Shown here: positions 12,808 to 59,599 of the stretch, one piece after another
How positions within the stretch are numbered: position 1 is the stretch's first letter
Layout of the letters: each line of letters opens with the position of its first letter
NCBI GenBank assembly: GCA_001776935.1
Contig: MFDN01000001.1
Span: 19,619 to 83,618, forward strand
Reading direction: 5' to 3'
DNA length: 64,000 bases
Source of the DNA: Candidatus Daviesbacteria bacterium RIFCSPLOWO2_01_FULL_39_23
GTDB lineage: Bacteria > Patescibacteriota > Microgenomatia > Daviesbacterales > UBA10151
The notes under the pieces: model-generated
What the model saw: only the letters and a program-made list of their open reading frames with translations
Database searches by the model: none
Told to the model about the DNA's origin: nothing
Program-made: the position numbers and the translations under genes

Positions 12808-13095
12808 ATGTTTGGATTCAGCCGGAAAAGATTTTTAGTTACTTTGGGGTTAAGTGTGTTGATTTGGATAGTTAGCAACTTTATACAACTACTAAACTCC
12901 AACCATTGGCCTGCAGGTTTCTCTCTATTAGGTGGTTCGTGTACAGTCACTGGTTATCCATTTGCTTTTTGTTTGGCAGGTTACGAGAAAGTTAAAATAT
13001 TACTAATTTATTTGGTGAATATTGCATTTTGGTTTTGGGTTTTACATTTTTTGTGGAAATGGTTTAACAAAGGGAAGTCTTCTTTTGAAAAATAG
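12808..13095 (+). CDS. Hypothetical small membrane protein (95 aa)
   Basis: Two TM-like segments. 3' end overlaps the convergent lipase gene by ~54 bp. Confidence 0.3.
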   Translation: MFGFSRKRFLVTLGLSVLIWIVSNFIQLLNSNHWPAGFSLLGGSCTVTGYPFAFCLAGYEKVKILLIYLVNIAFWFWVLHFLWKWFNKGKSSFEK

Positions 13096-16044
13096 CTTTT
13101 TCCCCTGAAAAATTGTGGTAATTAGTCCTAAGAAAGCAAGGGTTATTATTCCTCCGGAAACCATTAATAATCCTCCTAAAATTTGACTTGCAGGATTTAT
13201 TGTTTTTTTCTTAGTACTTAATTTTTTCTGTTCTCCTAAAATATTAGTGACATTAATTTGATCAGAAATACGAGCAGGGTTTTCAAAGTTGATTCCCAGC
13301 ACTCTTTTATTCACCTCGAAGGTGGGCTCTGACTCCTTCGAGGTGCTTGCTGTCAAGACGGATGTCGGATTATTGCTTTGGTTTGTTTCCTGAGTGGTGC
13401 CGGAGGAAGAATTATTATTGCCTGAACTGGTGCCTGTAGAGGCAGGTGTTGGCGAGGGGGTCGGTGTCGGGCTGGCTGGTACAGCTATTTCGATAATTAT
13501 GGTCTGAGGGATTTCCTCATTACCAGATTTATCAACGGCTTTTATTTGAATTGTAGTTTTGCCGGGAGCAGAAATAATAAAGGGCTCTGAATAAATTTTT
13601 ACTGTTTGGCCGTTATCTAAGCTGTATTCGATCCTCAGAATACCTGATTCTGTATCATTGCCTGTTAAAGTTATAGTTACAGGATTTGTATAGATGCCGG
13701 ATGAATCCTTGGTGCCGGAAATTTGAATGGAGGTTGTGGGTGAAGATTGATCAAAAGCATTTCCTCCTTGAATCTCGCTGGTAGGGATTATTATTTCGCT
13801 CTCCGGTTGGGCGGAGTCAGGGTAAATAGTTAGCGGTGGGGAAATATCGGACGAAGGATCAAGATCAAACTCAATTCCTCCTTTTTCATCAATAGCAATA
13901 TCTTTATAAATAGCAGTTTTTGAAATCCTGTCTTCCCTATAAGTTCGCTTTTTGATATTGGTGGTTTTTGAAGAAACAGCTTTCTTTTTGCGGGTTGCTT
14001 TGACTTTTACCTTAGCGGCTTTCTTTTTGACAAAAGCATGTTTAGTGTTGCCGGAAGTGGTACATATAACATCAGGAATATTTTCTTCTATCTCTCCTTT
14101 TTCGTTTAATCCGCAATGACGGTTTTGATCATCGTAAAGGTCTAATTCCCCGTCATCCAAAGAAATTTGTTCTCCTTCTAAAATAAACTTTTGGTCCTTA
14201 ACTTCTACAGGTAAATCGTTATCATCGTTTAAGATTGCTTTAACGGTTTGCATAGCGGTTCCATTTGTTGATACTAAATTTCCATGATTCTGTTCTACGT
14301 AATAAATTTTTGTAGCACCCGAGATGTCTAAATTATCGTTTTTTAGTGAAGCACTATATAATGGTACTGTGCCATCACCATTTATGAAGATCTCATCCCT
14401 TTTAGGGAATAAATTTATTGGCCATGTAATCCACCATGTTTCATTGATTTGACCCAAAGTCGGTTGCGCTGTGCCGACTATTCCATAAACTTTTGTGCCA
14501 TTTGTTTGGTTTAATATAGAATCCAAACTATTATGAAATTGTTCGCCAAAATTAAAGACAGACATATTGTAATTTAGATTTGAGAGAAGATTTTTGGTTT
14601 GATCAAAATTAAGAGTTCCAGTTAAGTTGTTGTTATCAATATCTTGATCATCTTTTAATGGGTATGGAAGATTCTTATCTAAATTAGTATAAAAATTATA
14701 ATATTGATTTGATGGCAAAAGTTGGAATAGTGCAGGATTATTCCGTGAGACATCTTTTACCTCACTAGCAGGTACGCCTATTGGAAAAATACCGAAAACA
14801 TTCTTTTGCAGAGCAGAACCATACATAAGCGTTTTTGTTGCACTGGTAGCTCCTAAATGGGGAACTCCCAGTTCAATTAGTTTGTTAACTTTAGAAGCTT
14901 TTTGAGCATCAGAGATATAATATCTGGCAACTAAACCGCCCATGGAATGAACAACAAGGTTTACTTGTGGCTGGCCGGATTTCTGTCTGGCATTTTCAAT
15001 TAAAGCATCTAAATCATCTTTAGTAGTTCTTACATCTTTTCTCCAGTCATAAGGAAAAACAAAGAAATTTGTTCCTTTGTCATACCCCATTTCTGTAAAA
15101 AATGGATCAATATCTGAATATCCAAATGAAGTTAATTCCCCTGTTAAGACAAGAGCTGCTTCTGAAGTTACCCCGTCTGCTTTTAACCTTAAAATATCAA
15201 AATAATCATCATTTCCTAACTTTACCGCTTCGTCTTGATTTACCCAAATCTTTTCTTCACCGCCGTATGCATGAGAATATGTTCCACCGTGTCCGTCATC
15301 CGAAGACCAAAAAATATCCTGCGAAGCTTTCATTTCAGACCCTCCGATTCCGGGAATAAAAATTACCGGCAGTCTGGGCGGATGCGAAGGAGCCAGCGCG
15401 GAAACCTTTATATTATCAAACTTCATATATGCGCCCCCGAATATTCCTGTCCAATATGATAATGTTATAGTCCCTTTTTTAATATTGGTGCCTGTGTCAG
15501 TGAAATCAAAGATAGGAGTGTTGTCTATCCAGGCTTTAATATTTTCATTGGAGACTTCGATTATGAGGTGATACCATTTGTTATTTGCAAGAGAAAAAGG
15601 CTTGATCTCTTTTAATAAAGTCTGCCCGTTTCCGTCAATCTTCCATAATATAATTTGTGGTGTGTTATGTATGCCTTTCCCGTACCTTAAATTGATTTCA
15701 TAAGAACCATTTTCTCCATATCTAAAACCTACACCCTGGTCGATTCCCAAAAAACCATTGATATCCAATTCTATGCGGTAATTATCCCATTCAGAATTGC
15801 CTGTGTTAATTCTTCCGCCCAGCGCTTTTCCTGAACTTGATCCGGCTAAGTTACCGTTATTTACCTGCCAATTACCTGATTCTATTGTCCATCCATTCAA
15901 ATTTCCGTCATCGAAATTATCAAAAAGAAGTATATCTTCTTCGGTTGCCATAACCCGGGTGCTTAAAGCCATAAAAAACCACACCGCAAGAATAAGCCCT
16001 ATTATTAGGCGCAGTGGCAATATATTATTCACCTTTGCATCCAA
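13042..16044 (-). CDS. Large secreted multidomain lipase/esterase: N-terminal ConA-like/DUF1080 lectin domain, alpha/beta-hydrolase lipase domain (GHSMGG-type), Pro/Thr-rich linker, C-terminal TM anchor
   Basis: Signal peptide. ILLFDNFDDGNLNGWTIESGNWQVNNGNLAG (DUF1080/LamG-like). VNLVVHSMGGLVARYY nucleophile elbow as in Lipase_2/PGAP1-like. PASPTPTPSPTPAS linker. C-terminal LGGLLMVSGGIITLAFLGLITTIF. Confidence 0.65.
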   Translation of the reverse strand: MDAKVNNILPLRLIIGLILAVWFFMALSTRVMATEEDILLFDNFDDGNLNGWTIESGNWQVNNGNLAGSSSGKALGGRINTGNSEWDNYRIELDINGFLGIDQGVGFRYGENGSYEINLRYGKGIHNTPQIILWKIDGNGQTLLKEIKPFSLANNKWYHLIIEVSNENIKAWIDNTPIFDFTDTGTNIKKGTITLSYWTGIFGGAYMKFDNIKVSALAPSHPPRLPVIFIPGIGGSEMKASQDIFWSSDDGHGGTYSHAYGGEEKIWVNQDEAVKLGNDDYFDILRLKADGVTSEAALVLTGELTSFGYSDIDPFFTEMGYDKGTNFFVFPYDWRKDVRTTKDDLDALIENARQKSGQPQVNLVVHSMGGLVARYYISDAQKASKVNKLIELGVPHLGATSATKTLMYGSALQKNVFGIFPIGVPASEVKDVSRNNPALFQLLPSNQYYNFYTNLDKNLPYPLKDDQDIDNNNLTGTLNFDQTKNLLSNLNYNMSVFNFGEQFHNSLDSILNQTNGTKVYGIVGTAQPTLGQINETWWITWPINLFPKRDEIFINGDGTVPLYSASLKNDNLDISGATKIYYVEQNHGNLVSTNGTAMQTVKAILNDDNDLPVEVKDQKFILEGEQISLDDGELDLYDDQNRHCGLNEKGEIEENIPDVICTTSGNTKHAFVKKKAAKVKVKATRKKKAVSSKTTNIKKRTYREDRISKTAIYKDIAIDEKGGIEFDLDPSSDISPPLTIYPDSAQPESEIIIPTSEIQGGNAFDQSSPTTSIQISGTKDSSGIYTNPVTITLTGNDTESGILRIEYSLDNGQTVKIYSEPFIISAPGKTTIQIKAVDKSGNEEIPQTIIIEIAVPASPTPTPSPTPASTGTSSGNNNSSSGTTQETNQSNNPTSVLTASTSKESEPTFEVNKRVLGINFENPARISDQINVTNILGEQKKLSTKKKTINPASQILGGLLMVSGGIITLAFLGLITTIFQGKKLFFKRRLPFVKPFPQKM
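13312..13345. repeat. 34-bp hairpin element copy A (cacctcgaagg-tgggctctgact-ccttcgaggtg), inside the 3' coding region of the lipase gene
   Basis: Perfect 11-bp stem with 12-nt loop. 33/34 identical to the copy at 16110-16143. Confidence 0.8.
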
Positions 16045-16109
16045 ATTGTTGATCGTGAAAAATCGGAGCGCAATATGGCTTTAAGGTGATTTAAGATAAC
16101 GAACTGACT

Positions 16110-16143
16110 CACCTCGAAGGTAGGCTCTGACTCCTTCGAGGTG
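16110..16143. repeat. 34-bp hairpin element copy B, in the divergent lipase/cyclophilin intergenic region
   Basis: cacctcgaaggtaggctctgactccttcgaggtg. Differs from copy A by one loop nucleotide. Confidence 0.8.
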
Positions 16144-16180
16144 TTGCAAAATAGACTTTGGGGTGGTATACATTTGAGGG

Positions 16181-16882
16181 ATGTTAACGAACCAGAAAGT
16201 TTTGTGGATGTTGCTTATACTTTTCATTATTGGAGCAGGAGTTTATCTTGCTGTCTCAAAATTTAAAAATGATGTCGGGGATTTATCAGCATCTCCTTCC
16301 CCTTCGCCTTCGGGGCTGGATTTTGTGTTAACTAAATCTCCTGAACCAACAGCGGTGTCGCAGGGCACCCAAACCCAGCAAGTCCAATCTTCTGAATTGC
16401 CATTAGCCCGCAATAAAAAACTTTCTAAATTCCCGGGAGTTTTAAAACCGGAGGATTTGCAAAATAAAAAAGCCGTTATTCAGACTGCCAAAGGGATAAT
16501 CCAGCTTAAAATTTATCCCGAAGCTTCTATGGCTGCCTCCAATTTTATGATTTTATCTGCAAATGGTTTTTACGACGGATTAAAATTTCACCGGGTGGAA
16601 GATTGGGTGGTGCAGGGCGGGGATCCTTTGGGAAACGGCACAGGCGGGCCAGGGTATCAATTTCCTGATGAGCCGGTTACGCGTTCCTATGTTAAGGGTA
16701 TAGTGGCTATGGCAAATGCAGGCCCTAATACCAACGGCAGCCAATTTTTTATCTTGAAAAAAGATACGCCTTTGCCTCCAAGCTATACGATTTTGGGGCA
16801 AATTATTTCCGGACAAGACGCAGTAGATAAACTTTCTATTGGTGATGTAATGCAGAAGGTGGTTATCCAAAATCTCCAATAG
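16181..16882 (+). CDS. Cyclophilin-type peptidyl-prolyl cis-trans isomerase with N-terminal TM anchor
   Basis: [29 protein letters not shown]...[17 protein letters not shown] (cyclophilin signature). Confidence 0.85.
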
Positions 16883-16883
16883 C

Positions 16884-16958
16884 TTTCAGCTATCAGTCTT
16901 CAGTCGTCAGATAATTGCAATTTAAATCTGAAAGCTGAGAGCTGAAGACTGATGACTA
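16884..16958. terminator. Imperfect long inverted repeat after the PPIase gene (arms atcagtcttcag / ctgaagactgat)
   Basis: 12-bp perfect arms at ~16892-16903 and ~16942-16953 with additional flanking complementarity. No clear U-tract. Confidence 0.4.
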
Positions 16959-16960
16959 TC

Positions 16961-16984
16961 TATACAATATCTTGTGTATTGACA
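16961..16984. promoter_or_regulatory. NrdR-box-like palindrome (ATACAATATCTTGTGTAT) followed by TTGACA, upstream of nrdR
   Basis: acaatatcttgtgt resembles the NrdR box consensus (acaCwAtATaTwgtgt, as recalled) with 1-2 mismatches. TTGACA at ~16979-16984. Confidence 0.45.
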
Positions 16985-17021
16985 CTTTATCATATCAACA
17001 TGTTATGTTATACTGAGTTTT

Positions 17022-17672: not shown

Positions 17673-20150
17673 ATGCCCCAAATGCCGGAAGGTCTGCCTC
17701 AGCCTACATTTTCCGAAAGCTCAAACAAAATTCTAAAGGAAAGGTATTTACTTAAGGGCGGGAATTTAGAAGTTATAGAAACTGTGGCAGAGCGTTTTTG
17801 GCATATTGCCTATGATATTGCCTCTGCTGATTTTGACTTTTCGCAGAGTTCGAAGCATGTTTTTGATTTATCCTGTAAGTTTTACACCATGATGGTTAAG
17901 CAGGAATTTCTACCTAATTCCCCGACAATTATGAATGCGGGCAAAAATAACGGTTTGCAGTATTCTGCCTGTTTTGTGCTGCCTGTTGGGGATTCTTTGC
18001 CGGAGATATTTGATTCCATAAAATACGCAGCGCTTATTCATCAAACAGGCGGAGGCACAGGCTTTGCTTTTTCCCGGCTTCGTCCTACAGGCTCAATTGT
18101 TAATACCACAGGCGGTGTGGCATCCGGACCTGTTTCTTTTCTTAGGGTATTTAATGCGGCTACAGAATCCATAAAACAGGGCGGCACAAGACGCGGCGCC
18201 AACATGGGGATTTTAAGGGTGGATCATCCTGATATTTTGGAATTTATCCGCTGCAAAGCAGAGCTTGATGATTTAAATAAACCTATTTTTGCAGGCATTG
18301 CCCCGCTTTTACCTGATGACGCGTCACGGGATTATGCTAAACAACTGCTTTTAGACAAGCAAATTGCTAATTTTAATATCTCGGTGGCTGCAACTGATAA
18401 ATTTATGGAGGCGGTGGAAAAAGGTGAAGATTATGAACTTATTCATCCTCACAGCGGAGAAGCGGTCGGCACTCTTAATGCCAAAGAAGTTTTTGATGAA
18501 ATAATTGAAAGAGCCTGGAAAACAGGAGATCCGGGCCTTATATTTATTGACCGCATAAACAACTCCCCTGCCAATCCGGTTCCCTCCTTGGAAACTATTG
18601 AATCAACCAATCCTTGCGGAGAGCAGCCTCTTGCGCCGTGGGATGCATGTAATTTAGGATCCATTAATTTGGGTAAATTTGTGCTTGAGGAGGGGTCAGA
18701 TGTGAATTGGGAAAAATTAAAAGATGTAACACGCTTGGCAGTCCACTTTTTGGATAATGTGGTGCAGAATAATCCTTTTACTTTAAAACAAATCTATGAT
18801 GAAGTGCACAAAAACCGCAGGATAGGCTTGGGAGTGATGGGTTTTGCCGATATGCTTTTTAAATTAAAAATTCCTTACGGAAGCGATGAAGCTTTAAAAA
18901 TGGCTGAAAAGATAATGAAGTTTATAAATGAAGAAGGACACAAAGAATCTGAGGAGTTGGCAATAGAACGCGGTCCTTTCCCCAATTTCTTAGATTCAAT
19001 CTATGCTGATAAAAATTCTCCTTCTTTTGCCAATAGGCCGGCCTCGTATGCTTATGAAGGCGGCAGGCCGATCAGGAATTCCACTATTACCACCATTGCT
19101 CCCACAGGCACAATTTCCATAATCGGTGATTGTTCCTCAGGGATTGAACCGGTTTTTGCCCTAGCTTATATGCACAAGGCTAAAGCTTCCGGTGATCAGT
19201 ACAGAATTTTGACTATTGCTAATCAAACATTTGTGGATATTGCCAAAAGAGAAGGTTTTTACAGCGACGATTTGGCGACGAAAGTTTTAGAGCATGGTTC
19301 TGTAGCCGGCGTTGACGGTGTGCCCCAGGAATGGCAAAAGGTTTTTGTGACAGCTCCTGAGATTGATCCTGTTTGGCATGTAAAGATGCAGGCAGCTTTT
19401 CAAAGCTATACAGATAATGGTGTTTCCAAAACTATCAACTTGCCAAACAGCGCAACCCGTGATGATGTCAGGCTTGCATATAAAATGGCTTATGAAACAG
19501 GCTGCAACGGAATTACCATTTACCGGGATGGCTCAAAATCAGTGCAGGTTTTAAATGTTTCCTCTTCTTTGGGTAAAGGCAAAGAAGAGACAGCTCCGGT
19601 AGCTGAGCGGCCGATGATTTTACATGGCAGGACTTATAAAGTTTCCACTCCTGTGGGGGAGGCTTTTATTACTGTAAACCGGGATATACAGGGGCAGCCT
19701 TTTGAAGTATTTGTGACTGTCGGCCGGGCAGGGATGCACACCATGGCAGATGCAGAAGCTATGGGAAGACTGGTGTCTTTGTCTCTGCGTTTGGCAAGAG
19801 GAACAAAAGAAACTGATCCGAAGGCTGTGGCTGCAAAAATTGTCGGCCAGCTTAAAGGAATCGGGGGAGCCTCCTCTGTGGGGTTTGGGAAAAACAGGGT
19901 GATGAGTCTGGCAGATGCAATTGCTAAAGTTTTGGCAGAGGATTTGGCAATGGAGACTCAAAGTCAGGAAGTTGAAGCAATACCTCTTGATTTAACCATC
20001 AACGGCAAAGGTGATATTGATCTACAACCCACAACCCACAACCCAAAACCCAAAACCAATGCTGATCTTTGTCCTGAATGCGGCTCTGCTTCTTTTGTCA
20101 TGGAAGAAGGCTGTAAGAAATGTCATAGCTGTGGGTATAGTATGTGCTAA
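17673..20150 (+). CDS. nrdJ: Adenosylcobalamin-dependent (class II) ribonucleotide reductase NrdJ
   Basis: KILKERYLLK N-terminus, NPCGEQPL active-site Cys motif, C-terminal CPECG...CKKCHSCG zinc ribbon. ORF track begins at 17511 (54 extra aa); start at MPQMPEG (17673) preferred by family alignment, uncertain. Confidence 0.9.
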   Translation: MPQMPEGLPQPTFSESSNKILKERYLLKGGNLEVIETVAERFWHIAYDIASADFDFSQSSKHVFDLSCKFYTMMVKQEFLPNSPTIMNAGKNNGLQYSACFVLPVGDSLPEIFDSIKYAALIHQTGGGTGFAFSRLRPTGSIVNTTGGVASGPVSFLRVFNAATESIKQGGTRRGANMGILRVDHPDILEFIRCKAELDDLNKPIFAGIAPLLPDDASRDYAKQLLLDKQIANFNISVAATDKFMEAVEKGEDYELIHPHSGEAVGTLNAKEVFDEIIERAWKTGDPGLIFIDRINNSPANPVPSLETIESTNPCGEQPLAPWDACNLGSINLGKFVLEEGSDVNWEKLKDVTRLAVHFLDNVVQNNPFTLKQIYDEVHKNRRIGLGVMGFADMLFKLKIPYGSDEALKMAEKIMKFINEEGHKESEELAIERGPFPNFLDSIYADKNSPSFANRPASYAYEGGRPIRNSTITTIAPTGTISIIGDCSSGIEPVFALAYMHKAKASGDQYRILTIANQTFVDIAKREGFYSDDLATKVLEHGSVAGVDGVPQEWQKVFVTAPEIDPVWHVKMQAAFQSYTDNGVSKTINLPNSATRDDVRLAYKMAYETGCNGITIYRDGSKSVQVLNVSSSLGKGKEETAPVAERPMILHGRTYKVSTPVGEAFITVNRDIQGQPFEVFVTVGRAGMHTMADAEAMGRLVSLSLRLARGTKETDPKAVAAKIVGQLKGIGGASSVGFGKNRVMSLADAIAKVLAEDLAMETQSQEVEAIPLDLTINGKGDIDLQPTTHNPKPKTNADLCPECGSASFVMEEGCKKCHSCGYSMC

Positions 20151-20162
20151 AATGGCCTCATT

Positions 20163-20756: not shown

Positions 20757-20764
20757 TATAAAAT

Positions 20765-25342: not shown

Positions 25343-25765
25343 TTATGTTTGGTTTGGAGTAGCGGGCGGTGTAGGAGTTTGGTTGCTGCCAAAAAGGGCA
25401 TTTTTTACTTCATTAACCACCTGATCAGGAGTATAAGAAGCTTTAATTAAATAAGCTTGTGCGCCTAACTCAAACCCTTCTTTTATAACTGCTTCCTGAC
25501 CCAGATTGGTTAAAAGAATAGTAATCATTGTTGAGGCAGGATTCTGAGTCTTAAATTCACGGAGAAGTTGCAAACCATTCATCCCAGGAAGCATGATATC
25601 CAAAAGCAAAAGATCAAAAGATTCGTTTTTTAATGTTTCCAAGCCTGTTTGTCCGTCTGCTGCGCTTTTTACTTCGAAACCTGCTTTAGAAAGTTGTCTG
25701 ACATACAATTCTCTGATAAAATCTTCATCCTCAACCAGTAAAATTTTTTTAGCCGCAGGATTCAT
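25343..25765 (-). CDS. Stand-alone response regulator (receiver domain only) with Pro/Thr-rich tail
   Basis: KILLVEDEDFIRELY...DLLLLDIMLPGMNG (CheY-like). No output domain. C-terminal NQTPTPPATPNQT. Confidence 0.8.
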   Translation of the reverse strand: MNPAAKKILLVEDEDFIRELYVRQLSKAGFEVKSAADGQTGLETLKNESFDLLLLDIMLPGMNGLQLLREFKTQNPASTMITILLTNLGQEAVIKEGFELGAQAYLIKASYTPDQVVNEVKNALFGSNQTPTPPATPNQT

Positions 25766-44700: not shown

Positions 44701-44711
44701 ACTAATATTTT

Positions 44712-46199
44712 GTGATTAAGAAATATTTACGTTCGCCATTTATTATACTTTTTTTTATTCTTATTTTAGGATTATTTTTTAGACTTTATAAACTGGAAAT
44801 ATTTTACTCTTGGGGGCATGATCAGGATTTATTTGCATGGATAGCAAAAGATATCGTGATTGACCATCATCTGCGCCTGATTGGACAGGAAACAAGCATA
44901 ACAGGGGTATTTATAGGTCCCATCTTTTATTATCTGATGGCGGTTTCTCTTGCGCTTTTTAATATGAATCCTCTGGGTGCTAATATTTCTGCAGTAATAA
45001 TTTCCTTATCAACAATTGTTAGTATTTATTGGGTTTTTAGTCAGTTTTTTGGGAAAAAAATCGGATTAACTGGAGCCTTTTTTTATGCAGTTTCTCCGGG
45101 TATCATACTTTTTGACAGGTGGATTGTTCCAACGCAACCTACCAGTCTGTGGTGTGTCTGGTTTTTGTACATCCTTCTCTCAATTCTCAAAGGTAATTTC
45201 CCCTTGGTGTTATTGGGTTTGCTAATTGGTTTGATCTGGCATGTTCATGTAGCTTTTATCCCGCTGCTTATACTTATACCTATCGCTTGGTGGTTATCTA
45301 AAATGCAGGGGTATAGAATTAAAATTACTGCAAAAAGCATAGTAATTTCTCTTCTTTTAATTTTTACCTTATTACTTCCTTTCTTCACCTTTGAGATTAG
45401 GCATGGATTCCAACAGATTAAGGGTTTGACCAGGGCTACTTATGAAGAAAAAGGAGACGTGAAAGGCATGGATAGGTTAAGAAAAGTTTTTAACGTTTCC
45501 GGAAGAGCGTTATCAGGCATAGTGCTTCTGGATAAAAATGCTTCTCTACCGAAGGAGTTTTTTATGTCTTTGGTCCCTCTTTTGCTCCTCTTAATTTTTT
45601 ATTTGTATAAGACAAAGATCATAACAAGAAATCAGACTGTAATTATCGGTTTATGGATTGGTATTGATTTATTGGGTCAATTCTTGTCAAAAAGATCTAT
45701 ACCGGAATATTATTTTGCTAATTTTATTGTGGTACAAATTTTAGTAATATCTGTATTTATTTCCACTTTTAATTTAAAAAGGGGATTGTCGTTTACTCCT
45801 TTATTGTTAGGAATGTACTTATTTGCAGCGACTTTTTGGTTTGTCACACAACCAGATGATCCGGGCGGATTCTTGCAAAAGAGAAGAGCTATAGAATACA
45901 TAAAAAATAATGCAGGAAACAAAGGGTATCCATGTGTGGCGATAAATTTTATTGAAGGATACGAGGGATTACCTAATGGATTCAGATACTTGTTTTGGTT
46001 GAATAACTTAAAAATTATCACACCGGGAAATGATATTCCTGTTTATAGTATAGTGACGCCTTGGACGATTTCGGCAAATGAAATTAATGCCAAATTTGGG
46101 GTTTTTGGTATCATTGAACCTCCCTCGAAAATAGTTGATCCGGAGCTTTGTTCTGACTCAAGCAGGCAATTACTACCTATATGGGGCTTTACAAATTAA
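44712..46199 (+). CDS. PMT/ArnT-like GT-C membrane protein, paralog B1
   Basis: FFRLYKLEIFYSWGHDQDLFAWIAKDIV...RLIGQETSITGVFIGPIFYYL...YAVSPG...R fits the PMT_2/ArnT N-terminal pattern. Close paralog of 52767..54272. Confidence 0.6.
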   Translation: MIKKYLRSPFIILFFILILGLFFRLYKLEIFYSWGHDQDLFAWIAKDIVIDHHLRLIGQETSITGVFIGPIFYYLMAVSLALFNMNPLGANISAVIISLSTIVSIYWVFSQFFGKKIGLTGAFFYAVSPGIILFDRWIVPTQPTSLWCVWFLYILLSILKGNFPLVLLGLLIGLIWHVHVAFIPLLILIPIAWWLSKMQGYRIKITAKSIVISLLLIFTLLLPFFTFEIRHGFQQIKGLTRATYEEKGDVKGMDRLRKVFNVSGRALSGIVLLDKNASLPKEFFMSLVPLLLLLIFYLYKTKIITRNQTVIIGLWIGIDLLGQFLSKRSIPEYYFANFIVVQILVISVFISTFNLKRGLSFTPLLLGMYLFAATFWFVTQPDDPGGFLQKRRAIEYIKNNAGNKGYPCVAINFIEGYEGLPNGFRYLFWLNNLKIITPGNDIPVYSIVTPWTISANEINAKFGVFGIIEPPSKIVDPELCSDSSRQLLPIWGFTN

Positions 46200-46215
46200 A
46201 AATAATATTCGAAGT

Positions 46216-47742
46216 ATGATTGAAGTTGTAAAAAAATGGCATTATTGGGCCATAGGTTTTATTATCTTGAATATTTTCTTAAGTTTAAGATGGTTAATTA
46301 ATGATGACATTCGTTTTGATGTAGATATATCCCGTGATTTTTTATTAATAAAGGAAATTATTACCCAAAAACCCATTACTTTGATTGGATCTCATACATC
46401 AATAAGCGGAGTTTTTCATGGACCGTTATGGTATTACCTGAATGTACCAGCTTTTTTTATCTCTTCCGGTAATCCAGTACTGATTGGATGGTTTTGGTGG
46501 GGATTGTCAATTTTAACTCTTGCTATAATATATTTTATTTCATTAAAATTATTTAATAAATCTACTGCTCTTCTGGCGACCTTACTTTACAGTGCAAATT
46601 CTATTATTAATCCTAATTATGGTCTGAAGATGTTTTTTCCTCCATATGGAGCTGTAATGTTGTTTCCAATATTTTTCTATCTTTTTATCCAGTATATTTT
46701 TAATAAAAAAGTCAAATATCTGGCATTTGCCATACTTATTTTAGGATTTATTATTCAGTTCGAAATGGCTTTTGGGATTCCTATATTGGGATTGATGGTA
46801 TTATTTCTAGTATATTTCTTATCCAGCAGAAAATTATTGAAACATTTTTTGATTCTTCCACTAATTTTTTTGCCGCTTTCCACATTTATCATTTTTGAGA
46901 TTCGACATAATTTTTTGCAGATTCAATCTCTGATTGGATATTTTGAATCTCAATTGGGCAAGAATCAATTAAATTTATACATGATTTTTATTGATAAAAT
47001 CAGAGGTATTTTTACGGATACATTTTTCTTGTTGATGCAAGATAATAGAAGCCTCAGCTGGACTTATTCTATTTTATTTGTAATTTTAATTTCCAGGATT
47101 AAATCTCCTCTTAAAAAAATTTATTGGATGTTTTTATTTTTTTATTTAGGCTATTGGGTTATTCATCTTTCTTTAAAACCCCTTTGGAGCAGTTATTACT
47201 GGCCACTCCTTACTGTAATAATTATTCTATATGCAGGTTTTATAAACTTTTTCTCCAAGAAGATATTTATTTTATTTTTTATACCGTTACTTTTATGGAA
47301 TATGTATATTGGATTAAAGTATATTAAAGATTTTGAAATGAATGTATCAGTGAGAGGTAAAAACAGTTGGGCATTTAATGAGTTAATTGCTCGAACGGTC
47401 TTTGAAGATGCAGATAGTGATTTTGGTTATTTCATTTTTATGCCAGAAAGATGGGTTTTTCAGGGATGGTATGCCTTGGATTTTTTACAGAGTCAATATC
47501 CGCAAAGAAAAGCACACCCTTTTGCAAAACAAAAATTGACGTATTTAATCATATATGATTCGCCAAAAGACTATCAGGATCCTATTAGTATGGGATGGAG
47601 AATTACCGATCTTAAAATTACCCAAAAACCGAAGGAGAATAAACGAATCGGAAACGTTGAGATTCAAAAATATTATTTATCCGAAGAAGAATTGCGATTA
47701 CCCGTGAATCCTTATTTGCTTAATTCAACTTTTTTCCGCTGA
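46216..47742 (+). CDS. PMT/ArnT-like GT-C membrane protein, paralog A2
   Basis: RFDVDISRDFLLIKEIITQKPITLIGSHTSISGVFHGPLWYYLNVPAFF. Close paralog of A1, including C-terminal domain motifs (SWAFN...DFGYF...KLTYL...PKD). ORF-track start 46135 trimmed to avoid overlap. Confidence 0.55.
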   Translation: MIEVVKKWHYWAIGFIILNIFLSLRWLINDDIRFDVDISRDFLLIKEIITQKPITLIGSHTSISGVFHGPLWYYLNVPAFFISSGNPVLIGWFWWGLSILTLAIIYFISLKLFNKSTALLATLLYSANSIINPNYGLKMFFPPYGAVMLFPIFFYLFIQYIFNKKVKYLAFAILILGFIIQFEMAFGIPILGLMVLFLVYFLSSRKLLKHFLILPLIFLPLSTFIIFEIRHNFLQIQSLIGYFESQLGKNQLNLYMIFIDKIRGIFTDTFFLLMQDNRSLSWTYSILFVILISRIKSPLKKIYWMFLFFYLGYWVIHLSLKPLWSSYYWPLLTVIIILYAGFINFFSKKIFILFFIPLLLWNMYIGLKYIKDFEMNVSVRGKNSWAFNELIARTVFEDADSDFGYFIFMPERWVFQGWYALDFLQSQYPQRKAHPFAKQKLTYLIIYDSPKDYQDPISMGWRITDLKITQKPKENKRIGNVEIQKYYLSEEELRLPVNPYLLNSTFFR

Positions 47743-52766: not shown

Positions 52767-54272
52767 TTATTCCACATAACCAAACAGAGAATCAGTAAGA
52801 TTGGTATCAGGAGTTTTGCAGCTTTGATCAATCATATCTTTTGGAGGCATATATGTCGGCGGAATAATGCCGATATGGCCAAACTTTTTTTCCACCTCAT
52901 TTAAGGCTAATTCATCAGGGAGAACTATATTGTAAACAGGGACTTTTAAAGAAGGGTGTGCTAGGTGTTGGTTTTTCAAATAGAAAAAATAGCGGAAACC
53001 GGTGTTTTCTCCGGGATCTGTTATATAAGAAATGCCGATACAGGGGAATCCGCTTTTAGCGGCATCAGCTACTATAAATTCTACAACTCCTTTTCTTTCC
53101 TGGTAATCTTTTTTATAGATATCTACAGTTACAAAACTATAAAGGTTTTTTGCAAACAGAATTCCCAGTATAAAAAATACCAAAATTTTGCCGGTAGAGC
53201 TTTTGACTAAATGGCTAAAAGTTAAGGCAATAAGTCCTACAAAAACTACCTCAATGCTGTATAGATAATATTCGGAAATTAAAGATGAAGAGAGGGTAAA
53301 AAATCCGATTACTCCAAAAAGTAAAACAGACAGAGGAACGATTTCTTTTTTTGTTATTATTTTTTTCTTTATCAGGAATATGCTTGAAGCTAAAATAATA
53401 AGTAAAAATAACGGTTTTAAGAAATCTGGTAAAGTATAGGGAGAAAAAAATAAATTATTAACATTTTTAATTACCATTTCAAAAACATAAATTAATTTTG
53501 TCTCTCCTGATCCTCCTCCATGATCGGTCGTAAAATTTTCGATTAAGGCACGGGTTTGACTAAAGCCATGCCTTATTTCAAAAAGCATAAGCGGTATATT
53601 GGTTACAAAAAATGCAATTACAAATAAAGATAGTTCTTTTATCTTTGGAATTTTTCTGGAAATCAAAAATGCAAAAGGGATTGCAAGGAGGGTTGGTATA
53701 AGGGCAATATGGATATGCCAAATTAAGCCAATTAAAATTCCTAAAATAGGTAAAACAAAAAACTTACCCCGGGCTATTTGCACAATCGTATAAAAATACC
53801 AAATGGTCCAAAGATTAGTTGGTGTGCTTGGAACAACTCTTCTGTCGAAGCTGATCCAAGGAAGCAAAATAGCTTGTAAAAAGGCAGCAATGAATCCGGT
53901 TGTTTCTCTGAATAATTTAGAAAAGACTATAAAATAACTTAAAGTAGTTAGTATTCCTATTATAGTTATAGGAACTAAAGCAGCCCAGGGATCCATTTGA
54001 GAAAGGATAAAAAAAGGGACCAAAAGATAATAAAAGAAAGGACCAATAAAGATTCCCGGAGCAGAAGTAAGTTGTCCAATAAGTCTTGGATGTTGATTAA
54101 TAACTATATCTTTGACAATCCATGAAAAGAGTTCCGCATCGTGGCCGTAGCCATATCTTTCTATAATTTGGTAAGTCCTAAAAAATACACTAATTAAAAT
54201 TATGATACCTAATATAAACAATGAGCTTTTCTTCATCCATATGATAGTAACAAGATATATTTGAATGTGCAA
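52767..54272 (-). CDS. PMT/ArnT-like GT-C membrane protein, paralog B2
   Basis: YGYGHDAELFSWIVKDIVINQHPRLIGQLTSAPGIFIGPFFYYL. C-terminal GFPCIGISYI...GFRYFFYLKN parallels paralog B1. Alternative start at MKKSS (54236). Confidence 0.6.
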   Translation of the reverse strand: MHIQIYLVTIIWMKKSSLFILGIIILISVFFRTYQIIERYGYGHDAELFSWIVKDIVINQHPRLIGQLTSAPGIFIGPFFYYLLVPFFILSQMDPWAALVPITIIGILTTLSYFIVFSKLFRETTGFIAAFLQAILLPWISFDRRVVPSTPTNLWTIWYFYTIVQIARGKFFVLPILGILIGLIWHIHIALIPTLLAIPFAFLISRKIPKIKELSLFVIAFFVTNIPLMLFEIRHGFSQTRALIENFTTDHGGGSGETKLIYVFEMVIKNVNNLFFSPYTLPDFLKPLFLLIILASSIFLIKKKIITKKEIVPLSVLLFGVIGFFTLSSSLISEYYLYSIEVVFVGLIALTFSHLVKSSTGKILVFFILGILFAKNLYSFVTVDIYKKDYQERKGVVEFIVADAAKSGFPCIGISYITDPGENTGFRYFFYLKNQHLAHPSLKVPVYNIVLPDELALNEVEKKFGHIGIIPPTYMPPKDMIDQSCKTPDTNLTDSLFGYVE

Positions 54273-54298
54273 TTTTTTGATGATACACTACCGGATCT

Positions 54299-55054: not shown

Positions 55055-55072
55055 AAGCAAAACTACTTTGAT

Positions 55073-55459: not shown

Positions 55460-55468
55460 TTAATTGAT

Positions 55469-56383
55469 CTATTGAGATTTAAAGAAGTCGATAGTTCTTT
55501 TTAAGCCTTCATCTAAATCTACTTTTGCATTCCAGCCCAATACTTTTTGAATTTTTTCAGATGATGCAACAAGAGCAGGGACATCACCTTTTCTCTCGCC
55601 CTTGTCTTCTATTGGAACTTCGTAGCCAATAATTTGAAAAATCTTTTTTACAACATCAATAACTTTTACCCCGGTTTGGGTGCCGACATTGAGTATATGT
55701 AAACCAGATAAAGTTAAAGCAAGAACATGGGCTTGGGCTAAATCATCTATATAAATAAAGTCCCTTATTTGCTCCCCTTTCCAGAAAAGAGGAATAGGTT
55801 TTTTAGAAAGAATTGATTTTACAAAATTCGGTATGGCATGGGTTTCCGGCTGGTGCAATTCTCCCGGACCGTAAGGGTTAAAATACCGTAGGATCGCAAC
55901 ATCAAATTCAAATAAATTATGGTAAAGCTTACAGAATTGTTCCATAGATATTTTAGTTATTCCGTATGGATTTTCCTGTTCTCCTAAAGGATCATCCTCG
56001 GTGATAGGTAATTTTTTGGGAAGTCCATAGACACACGCGCTTGATGAAAAAATGATTTTTTTCACATCAGCAATCCGTATTGCCTCCAACAGCTTAACCG
56101 TTCCAATGATGTTATTTTGTGCAAACTCCACAGGTTTTTTGACCGATTCCCCAACTTCTATAAACGAGGCCATATGAATAACTGCATCATGGCCCGGAAG
56201 TATATTTTCCAGCTGTTCCTGATCTTCCAGACTGACTTGATGAAATTTTATTTTTGGGTCTATATATTCTTTGTGGCCTTTTGACAGGTCGTCAATTACT
56301 GTCACAGAGTGCCCCTGTTCCAAGAGAAGCTTATTAACATGTGATCCGATAAATCCTGCGCCGCCTGTGACTAAAACTTTCAT
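55469..56383 (-). CDS. NAD-dependent nucleotide-sugar epimerase/dehydratase (GalE-like)
   Basis: MKVLVTGGAGFIGSHV Rossmann motif, SSSACVYG, YGITKISME (YxxxK). Confidence 0.8.
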   Translation of the reverse strand: MKVLVTGGAGFIGSHVNKLLLEQGHSVTVIDDLSKGHKEYIDPKIKFHQVSLEDQEQLENILPGHDAVIHMASFIEVGESVKKPVEFAQNNIIGTVKLLEAIRIADVKKIIFSSSACVYGLPKKLPITEDDPLGEQENPYGITKISMEQFCKLYHNLFEFDVAILRYFNPYGPGELHQPETHAIPNFVKSILSKKPIPLFWKGEQIRDFIYIDDLAQAHVLALTLSGLHILNVGTQTGVKVIDVVKKIFQIIGYEVPIEDKGERKGDVPALVASSEKIQKVLGWNAKVDLDEGLKRTIDFFKSQ

Positions 56384-56435
56384 GAAATTAATTTTAACAT
56401 AAATTTAGTATATCTTATTGTAAAATATTTGAAGT

Positions 56436-57989
56436 ATGATTACATTAAATATTATGCCTAGAACACTTCTTATTGTGATTATATTAATAACTGGTGTTTT
56501 ATTTCGTCTTGCTCTGACAGCAAACGGGAATTTTCTTTTTCATATGGATAGCGCAAGAGATATGGTTGATGTAAGAGAGATGGTAATCTTGAAAAAGATT
56601 CGCTTAATAGGACCCACTTCTGCAATTGATGGTTTATTCAGCGGACCTGCATGGTATTATTTGTTAAGCGTCCCTTTTATACTTTCCGGGGGAGATCCAT
56701 ATGCTGCCATTCTCATGCAGATAATTCTTTGGGCAATAGGCGGTTTTTTCCTATTAAAACTGGTTAGCAGCTGGGGAAAGTGGTTAATTGTTCCCATTGG
56801 CTTTATTTGGATTGCTTCAAATCATATAGTTTTAACTAGCTTTTATGCTTTTAATCCCACCCCTGTCATGCTGCTTTCGCCCTTATTTATATATTTATTA
56901 TTTAAATATTTAGAAAACGGGAGAGCAATTTATGGGATTTTCACCTGGTTTTTAGCGGGATTATTTTTTAATTTTGAGATGAATTTTGGTGTGTTTACGC
57001 CAATAATAATTGGTTCCTTAGTATGGACAAAAAATATTAATTTAGTTAAACAAAAAGCATTCTGGATGGGGTTTGTTCTTTTTATTTTAGCTTTGATGCC
57101 GCAAATTATTTTTGATTTAAAACATCAATTCATAATGAGTAAAGCTATCTTGAGACATTTAGCAGAAAATTCAAACGCAAATATAAATTTCCCTGTACGC
57201 TTCCAGGGGACTATAGAAAGTTTCTATAATACGTTTCTGCCGACTCTTTTTAACAGTAAATTATTAACAGGAATTATATTAGTGCTTTTCATTCCCATAA
57301 TATATAGATTTTTTAAGAATGGGACAAAAGAGATAGCGGTTTTGATCAGTATCATTTTTATTTTTGTTCCATTTTTGGGGTATTTAATTTTACCTGTGAG
57401 TATTAATCCGTGGCATTTAGGAGGAGAAATGGCTGTATTGTTAGTGCTGATAGCTTTTCTGTTAAAAAAACTTATGGATGGAGGAAAATTAGATAAAACA
57501 GTTTCCTTAATTATTTCAATTATGATTATTTTTCTTGGTCTTTCTAATATTGTTAATTTTTTCATAAACGATTTTAAAAAAACCAATGAAGACCCGTCAC
57601 TTTATAGAAATGAGATTGCTGCCATAGATTATGTATACCAAAAAGCCGGGGATAGAAACTTTAAAGTTTATGACTATCTTCCATCTATAATTGATTATCC
57701 TTACCAATATTTAATTTGGTGGTATGGGTTAAAAAAATATGGCTACTTGCCGGCAGATTATGCGTATGCTCCTAACAGAACCCCCTATATTTCAAATAAA
57801 GAAAGTTTTTCCGCAACTTCCGAGTCTTTGCAGAATAGGCAGGATTCTGATTTAGTTTTTTTGATAAAGGAACCCAATAGGAATAATACGCGTTCCGGTT
57901 GGGAGGGGAACTTTATTAAAATGGAAAGTATCGAAAAGCAGAAACTGGGTTCTTTAGAAGTTGAAATTAGAAAAGAAATTATTCAATAA
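56436..57989 (+). CDS. PMT/ArnT-like GT-C membrane protein, paralog C
   Basis: FHMDSARDMVDVREMVILKKIRLIGPTSAIDGLFSGPAWYYLLSVPFI with the same first-loop pattern as the other paralogs. 517 aa polytopic. Confidence 0.55.
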   Translation: MITLNIMPRTLLIVIILITGVLFRLALTANGNFLFHMDSARDMVDVREMVILKKIRLIGPTSAIDGLFSGPAWYYLLSVPFILSGGDPYAAILMQIILWAIGGFFLLKLVSSWGKWLIVPIGFIWIASNHIVLTSFYAFNPTPVMLLSPLFIYLLFKYLENGRAIYGIFTWFLAGLFFNFEMNFGVFTPIIIGSLVWTKNINLVKQKAFWMGFVLFILALMPQIIFDLKHQFIMSKAILRHLAENSNANINFPVRFQGTIESFYNTFLPTLFNSKLLTGIILVLFIPIIYRFFKNGTKEIAVLISIIFIFVPFLGYLILPVSINPWHLGGEMAVLLVLIAFLLKKLMDGGKLDKTVSLIISIMIIFLGLSNIVNFFINDFKKTNEDPSLYRNEIAAIDYVYQKAGDRNFKVYDYLPSIIDYPYQYLIWWYGLKKYGYLPADYAYAPNRTPYISNKESFSATSESLQNRQDSDLVFLIKEPNRNNTRSGWEGNFIKMESIEKQKLGSLEVEIRKEIIQ

Positions 57990-58398
57990 TAATTAGTCTT
58001 TTGGTATTCTCTATTTTTGCGATGGAAATTTTTAGTGTATCTGCAGGCAATATCTTTTCAATCTTATCTGCCCATTCTATTAGAATAATATTATTGGAAT
58101 AAGAACAGATTTCTTCAATGCCTAATTGTTTAAGACTTTCTATATTTTCCAGTCTATAAAGGTCTATATGATAAAGAACTTTTTTTGTTTTGGGGATCTG
58201 GTGTTGCCGGATTAAAACAAAAGTCGGGGAAATTATCTTTTCTTTAATTCCTAATCCTTTTGCAAACCCCTGGGCGAAGACAGTTTTACCGGCTCCCAGT
58301 TCGCCGCTCAAAGCAAAAAAACGGCTTTTGGTTTCTTTTGTTATTTTCCTAGCTATCTGCTTTGTTTCTTCTTCTGAGTTAGATATGTACTTTTGCAT
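57979..58398 (-). CDS. tsaE: tRNA threonylcarbamoyladenosine biosynthesis protein TsaE (YjeE)
   Basis: LSGELGAGKTVFAQGFAKGLGI...ISPTFVLI P-loop pattern of TsaE. Confidence 0.8.
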   Translation of the reverse strand: MQKYISNSEEETKQIARKITKETKSRFFALSGELGAGKTVFAQGFAKGLGIKEKIISPTFVLIRQHQIPKTKKVLYHIDLYRLENIESLKQLGIEEICSYSNNIILIEWADKIEKILPADTLKISIAKIENTKRLIIIE

Positions 58399-59599
58399 TT
58401 TTATAAAAATAAATATAACCTATTAAGCCTGCTCCGGCAATTATGAATAATACTCCCAGCCCAATTAGCGGATTACTTTGTTTCTGACTTTTAACCTCAA
58501 CTTTTGTGCCTTTTATATCAGATGCAGATGAGGATGCTTTTGCTCCGGCTACGGATGCAATCTTAGGAGTGGGTTTTAATGAAGGGGTAGGTCGGGGAGA
58601 AGGTGATTTGAAAACCGAAGGCGAGGGGCTAACTTCTTTAGTGGCCTGCGGAGTTGGTGAATTGCCGCGGGATGGGTTGTCTAAGTTGTTAATTTTAACA
58701 GTTATTTCATTGCTCCAGGCCGGACCGGATCCTCCCTGGGTGTAGCGGCCGACTTTAAAAATATAATTGCCGGTTCCTTTAAAATCATTATCATTCTTGT
58801 CAGGTTTTACTTCCAAATTGCCTGACCATGTGCCGCTTGCATCAGTTGTAATCTTATATTGATCGTTGTAGTCGTCGCCATATTCGATCCAATCAGAACC
58901 ATTTTTTGTCAACCCCAAATATCTGGTACCGTCGGATTTTTTAAAGGCTCCCTTCAGATAGTAGTCAGTATTTTGGCTGTTTGGTATTGAAAGGTTAATA
59001 TTTACAGAGAATGATTGGTCGGAGTTTATTTGAGAGGGAGCATTGGAAATAGTAAATGATGAACTTGCTTGGGGAGTGGCGGTGGGTGTTGGAGATAGAG
59101 ATGGGGATGGAGATGGAGTGGGAGATGCAGATGGGGTAGGTGAAGGTGCATTAACAGCAATCTGTAGGATATTTGACCAGGTTGCAGAGGTTCCTGTCTC
59201 GGTATATCTCCCGACTTTTAGATCATATATTCCAGATATTCCGGAAAAGTTTGGATCAGAAGTCTCAACTTTTCCCCGGACAGTACCTGACCAGGAGCCA
59301 GCACCATCAGTTGTAATAGATAAAAAATTCGCGTAGTTAATTGGCGAAGGAGTCCCGTTATAATAAGAGCTGCCATTAAAAGTTGATCCGAAATAATTAT
59401 TAGTTCCTGCTGTAGCTAAAGCTAGCCTTAGTCTATAAACGGTATTGTTTGATAATCCGCTCAAAGCTGTTGATATAGAAAATTCATTATCAGTATTGAT
59501 AGATGATGGGACATTAGAGATTGTCGGTGCGGCGGCGAAAGCAAAGTTTGCTCCAAAAAAGAATAGTGAAATACTAAGAATTAGTAAGTATATTCTCAC
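58379..59599 (-). CDS. Secreted cell-surface protein with two internal repeat domains, Pro/Thr/Ser-rich linkers and C-terminal TM anchor
   Basis: Signal peptide. Repeated domain (SWSGTVRGKVETSDPNFSGISGIYDLKVGRYTETGTSATWSNILQIAV / TWSGNLEVKPDKNDNDFKGTGNYIFKVGRYTQGGSGPAWSNEITVKIN). PSPTPSASPTPSPSPSLSPTPTATP linker. C-terminal LIGLGVLFIIAGAGLIGYIYF. Confidence 0.55.
   Translation of the reverse strand: MRIYLLILSISLFFFGANFAFAAAPTISNVPSSINTDNEFSISTALSGLSNNTVYRLRLALATAGTNNYFGSTFNGSSYYNGTPSPINYANFLSITTDGAGSWSGTVRGKVETSDPNFSGISGIYDLKVGRYTETGTSATWSNILQIAVNAPSPTPSASPTPSPSPSLSPTPTATPQASSSFTISNAPSQINSDQSFSVNINLSIPNSQNTDYYLKGAFKKSDGTRYLGLTKNGSDWIEYGDDYNDQYKITTDASGTWSGNLEVKPDKNDNDFKGTGNYIFKVGRYTQGGSGPAWSNEITVKINNLDNPSRGNSPTPQATKEVSPSPSVFKSPSPRPTPSLKPTPKIASVAGAKASSSASDIKGTKVEVKSQKQSNPLIGLGVLFIIAGAGLIGYIYFYKNAKVHI

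Follow-up and report, generated by a model that had tools for sequence, protein, structure and literature searches.

We analysed a stretch of 64,000 nucleotides (nt) from contig MFDN01000001.1 (the window) and found that several of its anchored surface proteins carry conserved, intrinsically disordered, extracytoplasmic spacers rich in proline, threonine and serine (P/T/S). These spacers hold the folded domains of the proteins off the membrane or through the wall. The same region encodes an array of glycosyltransferases of the GT-C superfamily, and by analogy with characterized systems we tentatively favour, as plausible, the reading that the spacers are O-glycosylated by a local GT-C enzyme. 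This proposal is reasonably taken as a hypothesis from ordinary sequence features and not as a discovery. Judging by its closest homologues, the organism is Candidatus Daviesbacteria, a low-GC bacterium of the Candidate Phyla Radiation (CPR).

P/T/S-rich spacers in anchored proteins

Each of the 51 window proteins was scored by the highest P+T+S count in any run of 20 residues, against a background of 16.4% of residues. Only three proteins reached at least 14/20: a secreted lipase (13042-16044, minus strand; 16/20 at aa 855), a PT-rich protein (35536-36471, minus strand; 15/20 at aa 242) and a two-repeat surface protein (58379-59599, minus strand; 18/20 at aa 152). A membrane-anchored cyclophilin (16181-16882, plus strand) was a weaker fourth case with 12/20 (SPSPSPSG). 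Composition-preserving shuffles of each protein (500 rounds) never gave as many tract-bearing proteins as observed, neither at ≥12/20 (four observed, shuffle maximum three) nor at ≥14/20 (three observed, shuffle maximum two). Tracts occurred in 4/13 bitopic or exported window proteins and in 0/25 cytoplasmic ones (Fisher p = 0.0097). An earlier note on this DNA had named the first three proteins as carrying such tracts next to a membrane anchor. This was borne out, with 15-18/20 against the background and anchors as described, and every peptide it quoted was found in its place.

The two-repeat surface protein consists, in its AlphaFold model, of a signal peptide, two beta-sandwich domains (aa 24-150 and aa 181-304) and an anchor. 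Its halves are true repeats (40% identity, E = 4e-25) with a generic tandem Ig/FnIII-like fold, the best match being the Vibrio matrix protein RbmA. Between the confidently modelled domains lies the P/T/S linker (59051-59155, aa 149-183), with a low predicted local distance difference test score (pLDDT) over aa 151-180. A disordered P/S-rich stalk of ~70 residues (58475-58687, aa 305-375; pLDDT about 40-48) leads to the C-terminal transmembrane (TM) helix (58397-58471; aa 377-401 in the model, aa 378-396 by hydropathy). The inter-domain linker is kept in 120/120 of the homologues listed, down to ~35% identity. Its length and sequence vary freely among them, and most carry a second tract before the anchor.

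The linker DNA (59082-59134) is a degenerate hexanucleotide repeat, TGGAGA on the plus strand and Ser-Pro on the coding strand, as would be expected if slippage drives the length variation among homologues. This repeat, together with the free variation of linker length and sequence, could be taken to mean that the tracts are neutral products of hexanucleotide-repeat slippage with no selected function. We regard this as very improbable, because the linker occupies the same position in all 120 homologues listed, a tract is present in 88/114 lipase homologues (see below) and tracts are confined to exported or bitopic proteins. Constancy of position and this confinement together indicate selection on both the composition and the position of the linkers.

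The lipase is a secreted, C-terminally anchored multidomain esterase/lipase. Pfam and NCBIfam matches give the order signal peptide, DUF1080/3-keto-disaccharide-hydrolase-like lectin fold, LCAT-type alpha/beta hydrolase, OmpL47-type beta-barrel domain, P/T/S-rich linker and TM anchor. The linker, which is also rich in asparagine (13330-13488, aa 853-905), begins VPASPTPTPSPTPASTGTSSGNNNSSSGTT. The anchor was located by hydropathy (13111-13167, aa 960-978); KKKTINP stands before it, and the basic tail behind it ends KPFPQKM. A C-terminal TM helix is present in 93/114 full-length homologues and a tract of ≥12/20 P/T/S within the last 260 residues in 88/114; across the family the composition of the linker is kept and its sequence is not.

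The C-termini of both families carry family-wide conserved motifs that go further than mere hydrophobicity. That of the lipase family (13042-13190) reads KKKTINP...LGGLL.VSGGI...KPFPK(M), and that of the two-repeat family (58397-58520) VK-x-QKQ-x-NP-x-x-W-x-GL, followed by the TM helix and KKN-x-KI. No NCBIfam match to a known C-terminal sorting signal (LPXTG, PGF-CTERM or similar) was obtained for the anchors, only these family-specific motifs, which may represent a lineage-specific sorting or retention signal.

The cyclophilin, a peptidyl-prolyl isomerase (PPIase; Pfam Pro_isomerase, 1.4e-28), was absent from the candidates of the earlier note. Its Ser/Pro-rich linker (16259-16420, aa 27-80) lies between an N-terminal TM anchor and the catalytic domain, and in this it resembles the streptococcal PPIase PrsA, whose disordered region is glycosylated (PMC12041528). 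A cyclophilin of Shapirobacteria (L038 20585-21187) has a 14/20 P/T/S tract at the same position and a putative lipoprotein signal (LLSSC).

The PT-rich protein is a bitopic, low-complexity protein of 311 residues with no Pfam match and no folded domain. Its Pro-rich N-terminal region (aa 1-205) is predicted to be cytoplasmic, followed by a conserved TM helix (35764-35838, about aa 212-236) and a Ser/Thr/Ala-rich C-terminal tail of ~75 residues (35539-35763, aa 237-311) that is predicted to lie outside. In 15 family members, one to four Lys/Arg residues precede the helix (two to four in 14/15) and none or one follows it; no signal peptide was detected in any of them. The helix is near-invariant (…PKWLIGVG…SAYFILGIGQ). 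The N-terminal side comprises 150-330 residues with a mean of 26% Pro, the C-terminal side 61-80 residues with 13% Pro and 25% Thr+Ser, and the external Ser/Thr-rich tail is kept in 15/15. By the positive-inside rule in these homologues and the lack of a signal peptide, the N-terminal 205 residues were ruled out as a GT-C substrate. Only the external tail of this protein would thus be exposed to GT-Cs, ~205/311 residues being predicted to be cytoplasmic.

A further candidate, the C-terminal tail NQTPTPPATPNQT (25346-25384, minus strand) of a receiver-only response regulator with a Response_reg domain, was rejected. The peptide is present, but the protein has no TM helix and no signal peptide, and the 9/20 P/T/S of the tail is within the ordinary range of window proteins. 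The active site of GT-C enzymes faces outward, so a tail on a cytoplasmic receiver is out of their reach. Of the four substrates proposed in the earlier note, this one is wrong and the PT-rich protein, for its N-terminal region, mostly so. In sum, the two-repeat protein, the PT-rich protein in its tail, the lipase and the cyclophilin each have an outward-facing tract that is rich in Ser/Thr and predicted to be disordered.

GT-C enzymes of the window

Seven GT-C candidates were identified, namely one ArnT-like PMT_2 protein (G1), one YfhO-like protein (G2) and five paralogs (G3-G7). G1 (39378-40748, minus strand) has the motif WDEAWYAE after TM1 and matches PMT_2 (PF13231) with 68.1 bits, the gathering threshold being 26.1 bits. 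It also gave a weak NCBIfam ArnT match, and ArnT (5ezm, E = 2.9e-12) was its sole match among PDB sequences. G2 (40762-43161, minus strand; 799 aa) forms an apparent operon with G1. Its match to YfhO (PF09586; 40.3 bits, cutoff 28.5) is confined to residues 688-775 and to the last ~100 positions of the model, and its score against the PgfM2 model NF047590 was 28.1 bits, far under the cutoff of 1500. G2 had no match in the PDB sequence search.

G3 (43165-44700), G4 (44712-46199) and G5 are tandem paralogs on the plus strand (43165-47742), all three belonging to a Microgenomates-wide GT-C family. The open reading frame (ORF) listed for G5 begins with a TTG codon (46135) and shares 65 nt with G4; this gene, which ends at 47742, more probably starts with an in-frame ATG (46216; MIEVVKKWHY...) just past the stop codon of G4. 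G6 (52767-54272, minus strand) is a paralog of G4. G7 (56436-57989, plus strand) bridges the G3/G5 and G4/G6 pairs and adjoins the two-repeat gene via tsaE, an arrangement kept in four genomes. Identities are 44% for G3/G5, 36% for G4/G6, and 28% and 22% for G7 to G3 and to G4, respectively. Next to G7 lies a gene for a sugar-nucleotide epimerase/dehydratase that is dependent on NAD (55469-56383, minus strand; PF01370, 3.2e-65); its position is kept in loci L003 and L005.

The PMT_2 scores of G3, G4, G6 (20.6 bits) and G7 fell below the threshold (18.5-22.3 bits), and G5 had no match. Most G4 homologues carry a precomputed PF13231 match; the G3-G7 family is therefore probably a divergent PMT_2 branch. 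With 1,734 clusters at 50% identity (E ≤ 1e-30), this is a large family. Its range spans Daviesbacteria, Woesebacteria, Shapirobacteria and Blackburnbacteria, and 79 loci yielded 194 members.

Searched against PDB sequences, a profile built from 42 sequences of this family (G3-G7) matched none, solved protein O-mannosyltransferases (PMTs) included. As neither G2 nor the G4 family had a PDB match, structure prediction was needed. The AlphaFold model of G4 (pLDDT 90.7, predicted template modelling score 0.91) has a clear GT-C fold. Its top Foldseek match was ArnT (TM-score 0.58) with an identity of only 10-12%, and the model is about equally distant from ALG12, Pmt4, ArnT and STT3. These enzymes use lipid-linked-oligosaccharide, protein-O, lipid A and protein-N acceptors, respectively, and the fold is therefore silent on the acceptor. 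Acidic motifs were found in the first extracytoplasmic loop of G1 (WDEAWY), G3 and G5 (DVD), G4 (H-D-Q-D), G6 (H-D-A-E) and G7 (D-x3-D); H36 and D39 are ≥90% conserved in the 42 family members. G2 has no acidic pair within its first 90 residues. As polytopic membrane proteins, with a GT-C fold modelled for G4, the enzymes fit the GT-C superfamily.

G1-G7 lack defining features of PMTs

The earlier note had spoken of many PMT-like genes. Seven GT-C candidates are indeed present, but only one passes the PMT_2 threshold and none matches PF02366. In the MtPMT study (PMC12331936), PMTs are described by the modules PF02366 and PF16192, a catalytic Asp in external loop (EL) 1 and a WW-like hairpin in EL4 that recognizes Pro-rich acceptors. 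No match to PF02366 was obtained for any of G1-G7 at E ≤ 0.01, and PF16192 (PMT_4TMC) was matched neither by G1-G7 nor by a 387-aa GT-C protein encoded past the right end of the window. The WW-like EL4 pattern tested, P-x0-3-W-x8-12-[YF]-x12-20-[WL]-x1-3-P, was absent from all eight proteins scanned. In the G4 model there is no beta-hairpin in the loop equivalent to EL4, strands being present only in EL1 and the C-terminal domain.

Neither in sequence nor in structure are G1-G7 closer to PMTs than to other GT-C classes, and their assignment to the PMT/GT39 family was rejected on these three missing features and on a fold equidistant from the GT-C classes. NCBI labels homologues as 'glycosyltransferase family 39 protein', a label that these tests do not support at the level of PF02366.

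It is accordingly improbable that G1-G7 are PMT-type (GT39) protein O-mannosyltransferases that transfer mannose from polyprenyl-phosphate-mannose onto Pro/Thr linkers, as in Actinobacteria. Their PMT_2 similarity and the NCBI annotation of homologues would fit that idea, as would the 387-aa neighbour, which has an FDE motif, narrowly exceeds the PF13231 and PF02366 cutoffs (PF02366 27.5 versus 22.7 bits) and lies beside a DPM-synthase-like GT2-GtrA protein. Against it stand the missing PF02366 and PF16192 modules, the missing EL4 signature by which MtPMT recognizes Pro-rich acceptors, the G4 fold, which is as near to ALG12, ArnT and STT3 as to PMT, the family profile that matched no solved PMT, and the fact that the host is no actinobacterium.

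Donor genes and conservation of the region

Inside the window, no GT-A partner that would synthesize a polyprenyl-phosphate sugar was found; the epimerase at 55469-56383 is the only donor gene there. Further donor genes lie on the same contig past prfB, within ~10 kb of the right end of the window (L001 1-8607). Just beyond that end are rmlA, rmlB, rmlC and rmlD and a further epimerase gene. About 6-7 kb past it, a protein combining GT2 and GtrA_DPMS_TM domains (79.9 and 70.6 bits; L001 3161-4345) is encoded, whose best NCBIfam similarities, all weak, are PgfS, AglJ, ArnC and PpgS, each a polyprenyl-phosphate-sugar synthase. Farther out on the contig, a GT2-PMT_2 fusion unites synthase and transferase in one chain. 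With GT2-GtrA, the rml genes, the epimerases and the GT-Cs, a complete lipid-phosphate-sugar/GT-C pathway is encoded, comprising at least nine GT-Cs in ~75 kb.

The gene order from rml/GT2-GtrA through prfB, ftsEX, the M23 peptidase gene, the two-repeat gene and tsaE to the GT-Cs is kept in three other Daviesbacteria genomes, in which the two-repeat homologues show ~45-56% identity over 57-91% of their length. In CP066688.1, the syntenic PT-rich homologue sits between serS and secA. Seven GT-C genes lie between secA and tsaE here versus two in CP066688.1, with the PT-rich gene beside secA in both. The interval here (36569-58398), which was compared with L004 11160-17649, also contains glnA, a two-component system and further genes; between its fixed flanks, GT-C paralogs seem to be gained and lost as in a variable island.

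Directly upstream of the two-repeat gene and co-oriented with it is a block (59616-62355, minus strand) of ftsE (61681-62355), ftsX (60816-61688) and a gene for a PcsB-like M23 peptidase (59616-60806). All three were assigned by Pfam, and CC_PcsB is among the precomputed families in the orthologous loci. The order ftsE, ftsX, M23 peptidase with PcsB-type coiled coil, two-repeat gene, tsaE is kept in four Daviesbacteria genomes (L001, L003, L004 and L005). The two-repeat protein may be an accessory of cell division or of the septal wall and not a generic adhesin.

We also took a census of 79 Microgenomates loci around GT-C genes (1.36 Mb; 1,118 ORFs; tracts of ≥14/20). Tracts were found in 36/247 bitopic proteins, 3/454 proteins without a TM helix and 0/407 polytopic proteins, a strong enrichment among exported proteins. 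The 44 tract proteins collapse to about nine families, 20 being two-repeat orthologues and 17 PT-rich orthologues. As this mostly reflects synteny, the census is no independent test of linkage between tracts and GT-C genes, and its use as such was abandoned. Two cases come from other Patescibacteria. In L050 (8486-9964), the gene of an exported hydrolase (GH114) with a long PT linker is divergent from that of a G4-family GT-C, and in L081 (8289-8999) a GT-C gene is abutted by that of a TIG-domain protein whose PT tract is N-terminal. Together with the L038 cyclophilin, these would be independent, if anecdotal, cases of linker proteins near GT-Cs.

Possible acceptors of the GT-C enzymes

If the spacers are glycosylated, their Ser and Thr residues would be modified outside the membrane. 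The GT2-GtrA protein would charge polyprenyl phosphate with a sugar and assist the passage of this sugar across the membrane, and one or a few of the approximately nine local GT-Cs would attach it to the linkers. Foremost among the candidates for this transferase would be G2, which is YfhO-like, and the short PMT-like protein encoded just past the window. The glycans might stiffen the linkers and shield them from proteases, and the remaining GT-C paralogs might extend the glycans or act on non-protein acceptors. The working analogy suggested here is with the streptococcal GtrB/PgtC2 and Pgf systems and with Cbes_1864 of Caldicellulosiruptor bescii, not with actinobacterial PMT.

The streptococcal systems GtrB/PgtC2 and Pgf (PgfS, PgfM1, PgfE and PgfM2) O-glycosylate extracytoplasmic Ser/Thr-rich disordered regions (PMC12041528). 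They share with the present case a monoderm envelope and acceptors that are disordered Ser/Thr-rich regions of anchored proteins, often near the anchor or terminus. A PPIase is among the acceptors (PrsA), as the anchored cyclophilin is among the candidates here. The streptococcal set of a GT-A synthase, a YfhO-family GT-C and an epimerase has its counterparts in GT2-GtrA, G2 and the epimerase next to G7. However, the linkers described here are much richer in proline, and G2 covers only the C-terminal part of YfhO, its PgfM2 score of 28 bits being far below the cutoff. Streptococci have one or two GT-Cs where this region has at least nine, five of them from another family.

In C. bescii, Cbes_1864 (CAZy GT39) is needed to glycosylate CelA and other secreted enzymes with Pro/Thr linkers; its gene lies near celA, and loss of glycosylation raises proteolytic cleavage (PMC6151902). 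The likeness extends to a low-GC monoderm with alternating Thr/Pro interdomain linkers and to a GT-C with a predicted lipid-linked donor that is encoded near a substrate gene. It differs in that a single enzyme does all detectable protein glycosylation there.

Actinobacterial O-mannosylation is carried out by Ppm1 and a PMT (GT39), for example Rv1002c of M. tuberculosis, and acts on PT linkers in Cellulomonas (PMC12331936, PMC12757957), where these are heavily mannosylated (PMC12757957). Common to both are unstructured Pro/Thr/Ser-rich acceptor regions on proteins that are secreted or anchored, a donor in the form of a lipid-phosphate sugar, catalysis by a GT-C and protection from proteases. 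Besides the absence of PF02366, PF16192 and a WW-like EL4 from G1-G7, the differences are several paralogs in place of a single PMT, another phylum and a low-GC genome; only the 387-aa neighbour is marginally PMT-like.

Two further comparisons lead away from protein acceptors. ArnT (GT83, the lipid A 4-amino-4-deoxy-L-arabinose (Ara4N) transferase; 5ezm/5f15) shares with G1 the PMT_2 family and the motif DE..YAE after TM1. As the closest solved relative of G1 and the top Foldseek match of G4, it is nevertheless remote from G4 in sequence, and the region lacks an Ara4N pathway of the ArnC/ArnD type. CPR/Microgenomates are not known to synthesize lipid A. YfhO/CsbB of Bacillus and Listeria and the mycobacterial EmbA/B/C, AftA-D and PimE likewise involve several GT-Cs, in a number comparable to that found here, which use polyprenyl-phosphate monosaccharides to make or modify envelope polymers outside the membrane.

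The proposal of the earlier note that surface proteins are O-glycosylated is supported in part: the linkers are real, a GT-C fold is present, the donor genes are nearby and GT-C enzymes glycosylate comparable regions in other monoderms, but no GT-C is tied to a protein acceptor. A number of points weigh against glycosylated spacers. Nothing in the sequence displays glycosylation itself. Neither family nor fold determines the acceptor of a GT-C, and the nearest solved relative of both G1 and G4 is the lipid-acceptor enzyme ArnT. To our knowledge, nine GT-C paralogs far exceed the needs of any known protein O-glycosylation system; their number looks more like extracytoplasmic polymer assembly, and the neighbouring rmlABCD genes point to a rhamnose-containing glycan, commonly a wall polysaccharide. 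PT linkers also serve as unglycosylated spacers in many organisms. Pro-rich low complexity occurs in this lineage on the cytoplasmic side too, beyond the reach of GT-Cs, as in the N-terminus of the PT-rich protein, and composition alone is therefore no mark of glycosylation here. The order of the surrounding housekeeping genes is conserved as well, so the linkage of surface-protein and GT-C genes, for which this lineage-wide order accounts at least in part, may be plain synteny, and the census hits reduce to about nine families dominated by two sets of orthologues. YfhO homologues of Bacillus and Listeria glycosylate teichoic acids (PMC12041528).

These points are accommodated by an alternative that we consider about equally likely. 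In this alternative the linkers carry no glycans and act as entropic or wall-spanning spacers, the GT-C array serves to build or decorate an envelope glycoconjugate that is not a protein, and co-location of the two is coincidental synteny. Candidates for the glycoconjugate would be a wall polysaccharide containing rhamnose, a polymer resembling teichoic acid or a lipoglycan, comparable to the products of YfhO/CsbB or the mycobacterial Emb, Aft and PimE enzymes. The relation of G1 and G4 to ArnT, the teichoic-acid role of the YfhO homologues, the sheer number of GT-C genes (at least nine in ~75 kb here, and 194 of the family across the 79 loci) and the adjoining rmlABCD genes all argue for it. 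So do the synteny across Daviesbacteria, which includes unrelated housekeeping genes, and the GT-C content between secA and tsaE, which varies from two to seven while the flanking linker proteins are constant. However, no genes for an LCP ligase, Wzx/Wzy, WecA/TagO or an ABC exporter were found in the window or in the inspected 10-kb flanks, and extracytoplasmic Ser/Thr-rich regions are glycosylated in the monoderms cited above (PMC12041528, PMC6151902, PMC12757957). A non-protein glycoconjugate and protein O-glycosylation are, moreover, not mutually exclusive.

CPR/Patescibacteria depend on surface contacts with hosts. A broader proposal, which we regard as speculative and rather unlikely, is that Microgenomates run a general extracytoplasmic O-glycosylation in which the lineage-specific, much expanded G3-G7-type family (two to seven or more copies in the secA-tsaE island) would decorate P/T/S stalks with diverse sugars, and turnover of paralogs would diversify the surface of these episymbiotic, phage-exposed, ultra-small cells. 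In the searchable literature, we found no experimental study of protein glycosylation or envelope glycobiology in CPR/Patescibacteria.

The locus offers a testable set of parts, comprising three linker-protein families, a GT2-GtrA donor synthase, sugar-nucleotide enzymes and approximately nine GT-Cs from three families. If the spacers are glycosylated, GT-C-dependent, lipid-linked O-glycosylation of disordered regions would extend from Actinobacteria and Firmicutes to the CPR, and a family of more than 1,700 sequence clusters would gain a function. If the acceptors are polymers or lipids instead, this would suggest an uncharacterized wall glycoconjugate of the CPR.

Host and other features of the window

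The window has a GC content of ~38% and contains housekeeping genes of a small genome, namely those for NrdR, a class II ribonucleotide reductase, Lon, H+-PPase, LysRS, SerRS, SecA, prfB and ftsEX. Three window proteins have exact or close homologues in Candidatus Daviesbacteria and other Microgenomates (CPR/Patescibacteria), and one window protein has the same sequence as ACD_32C00109G0005 of the Rifle aquifer. The actinobacterial setting in which the earlier note had placed the linkers is therefore inapplicable.

At the left end of the window, a metal-handling cluster unrelated to the P/T/S linkers (954-9427) comprises a P-type Cu/heavy-metal ATPase (6143-8383), membrane proteins resembling DsbD and cytochrome c biogenesis proteins, and several small exported proteins. 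The only public match of the first gene of the window was a contig of 961 bp, and the left end may differ between assemblies.

Two tandem repeats were noted. A heptanucleotide repeat, ACAACCC (20024-20057; 4.9 copies, 96% matches), lies in the 3' part of the ribonucleotide reductase gene; its period is not divisible by three, which is unusual for a coding sequence. The repeat AAAGTGT/AAAGTGC (3560-3600; at least 3.7 copies) occupies a short intergenic gap between 2628-3557 and 3618-4454.

Dozens of third party annotation (TPA) records of metagenome-assembled genomes with Microgenomates gene content (e.g. L007, L012, L013 and L020) are titled 'uncultured Gammaproteobacteria bacterium', apparently a generic mislabelling of public records.

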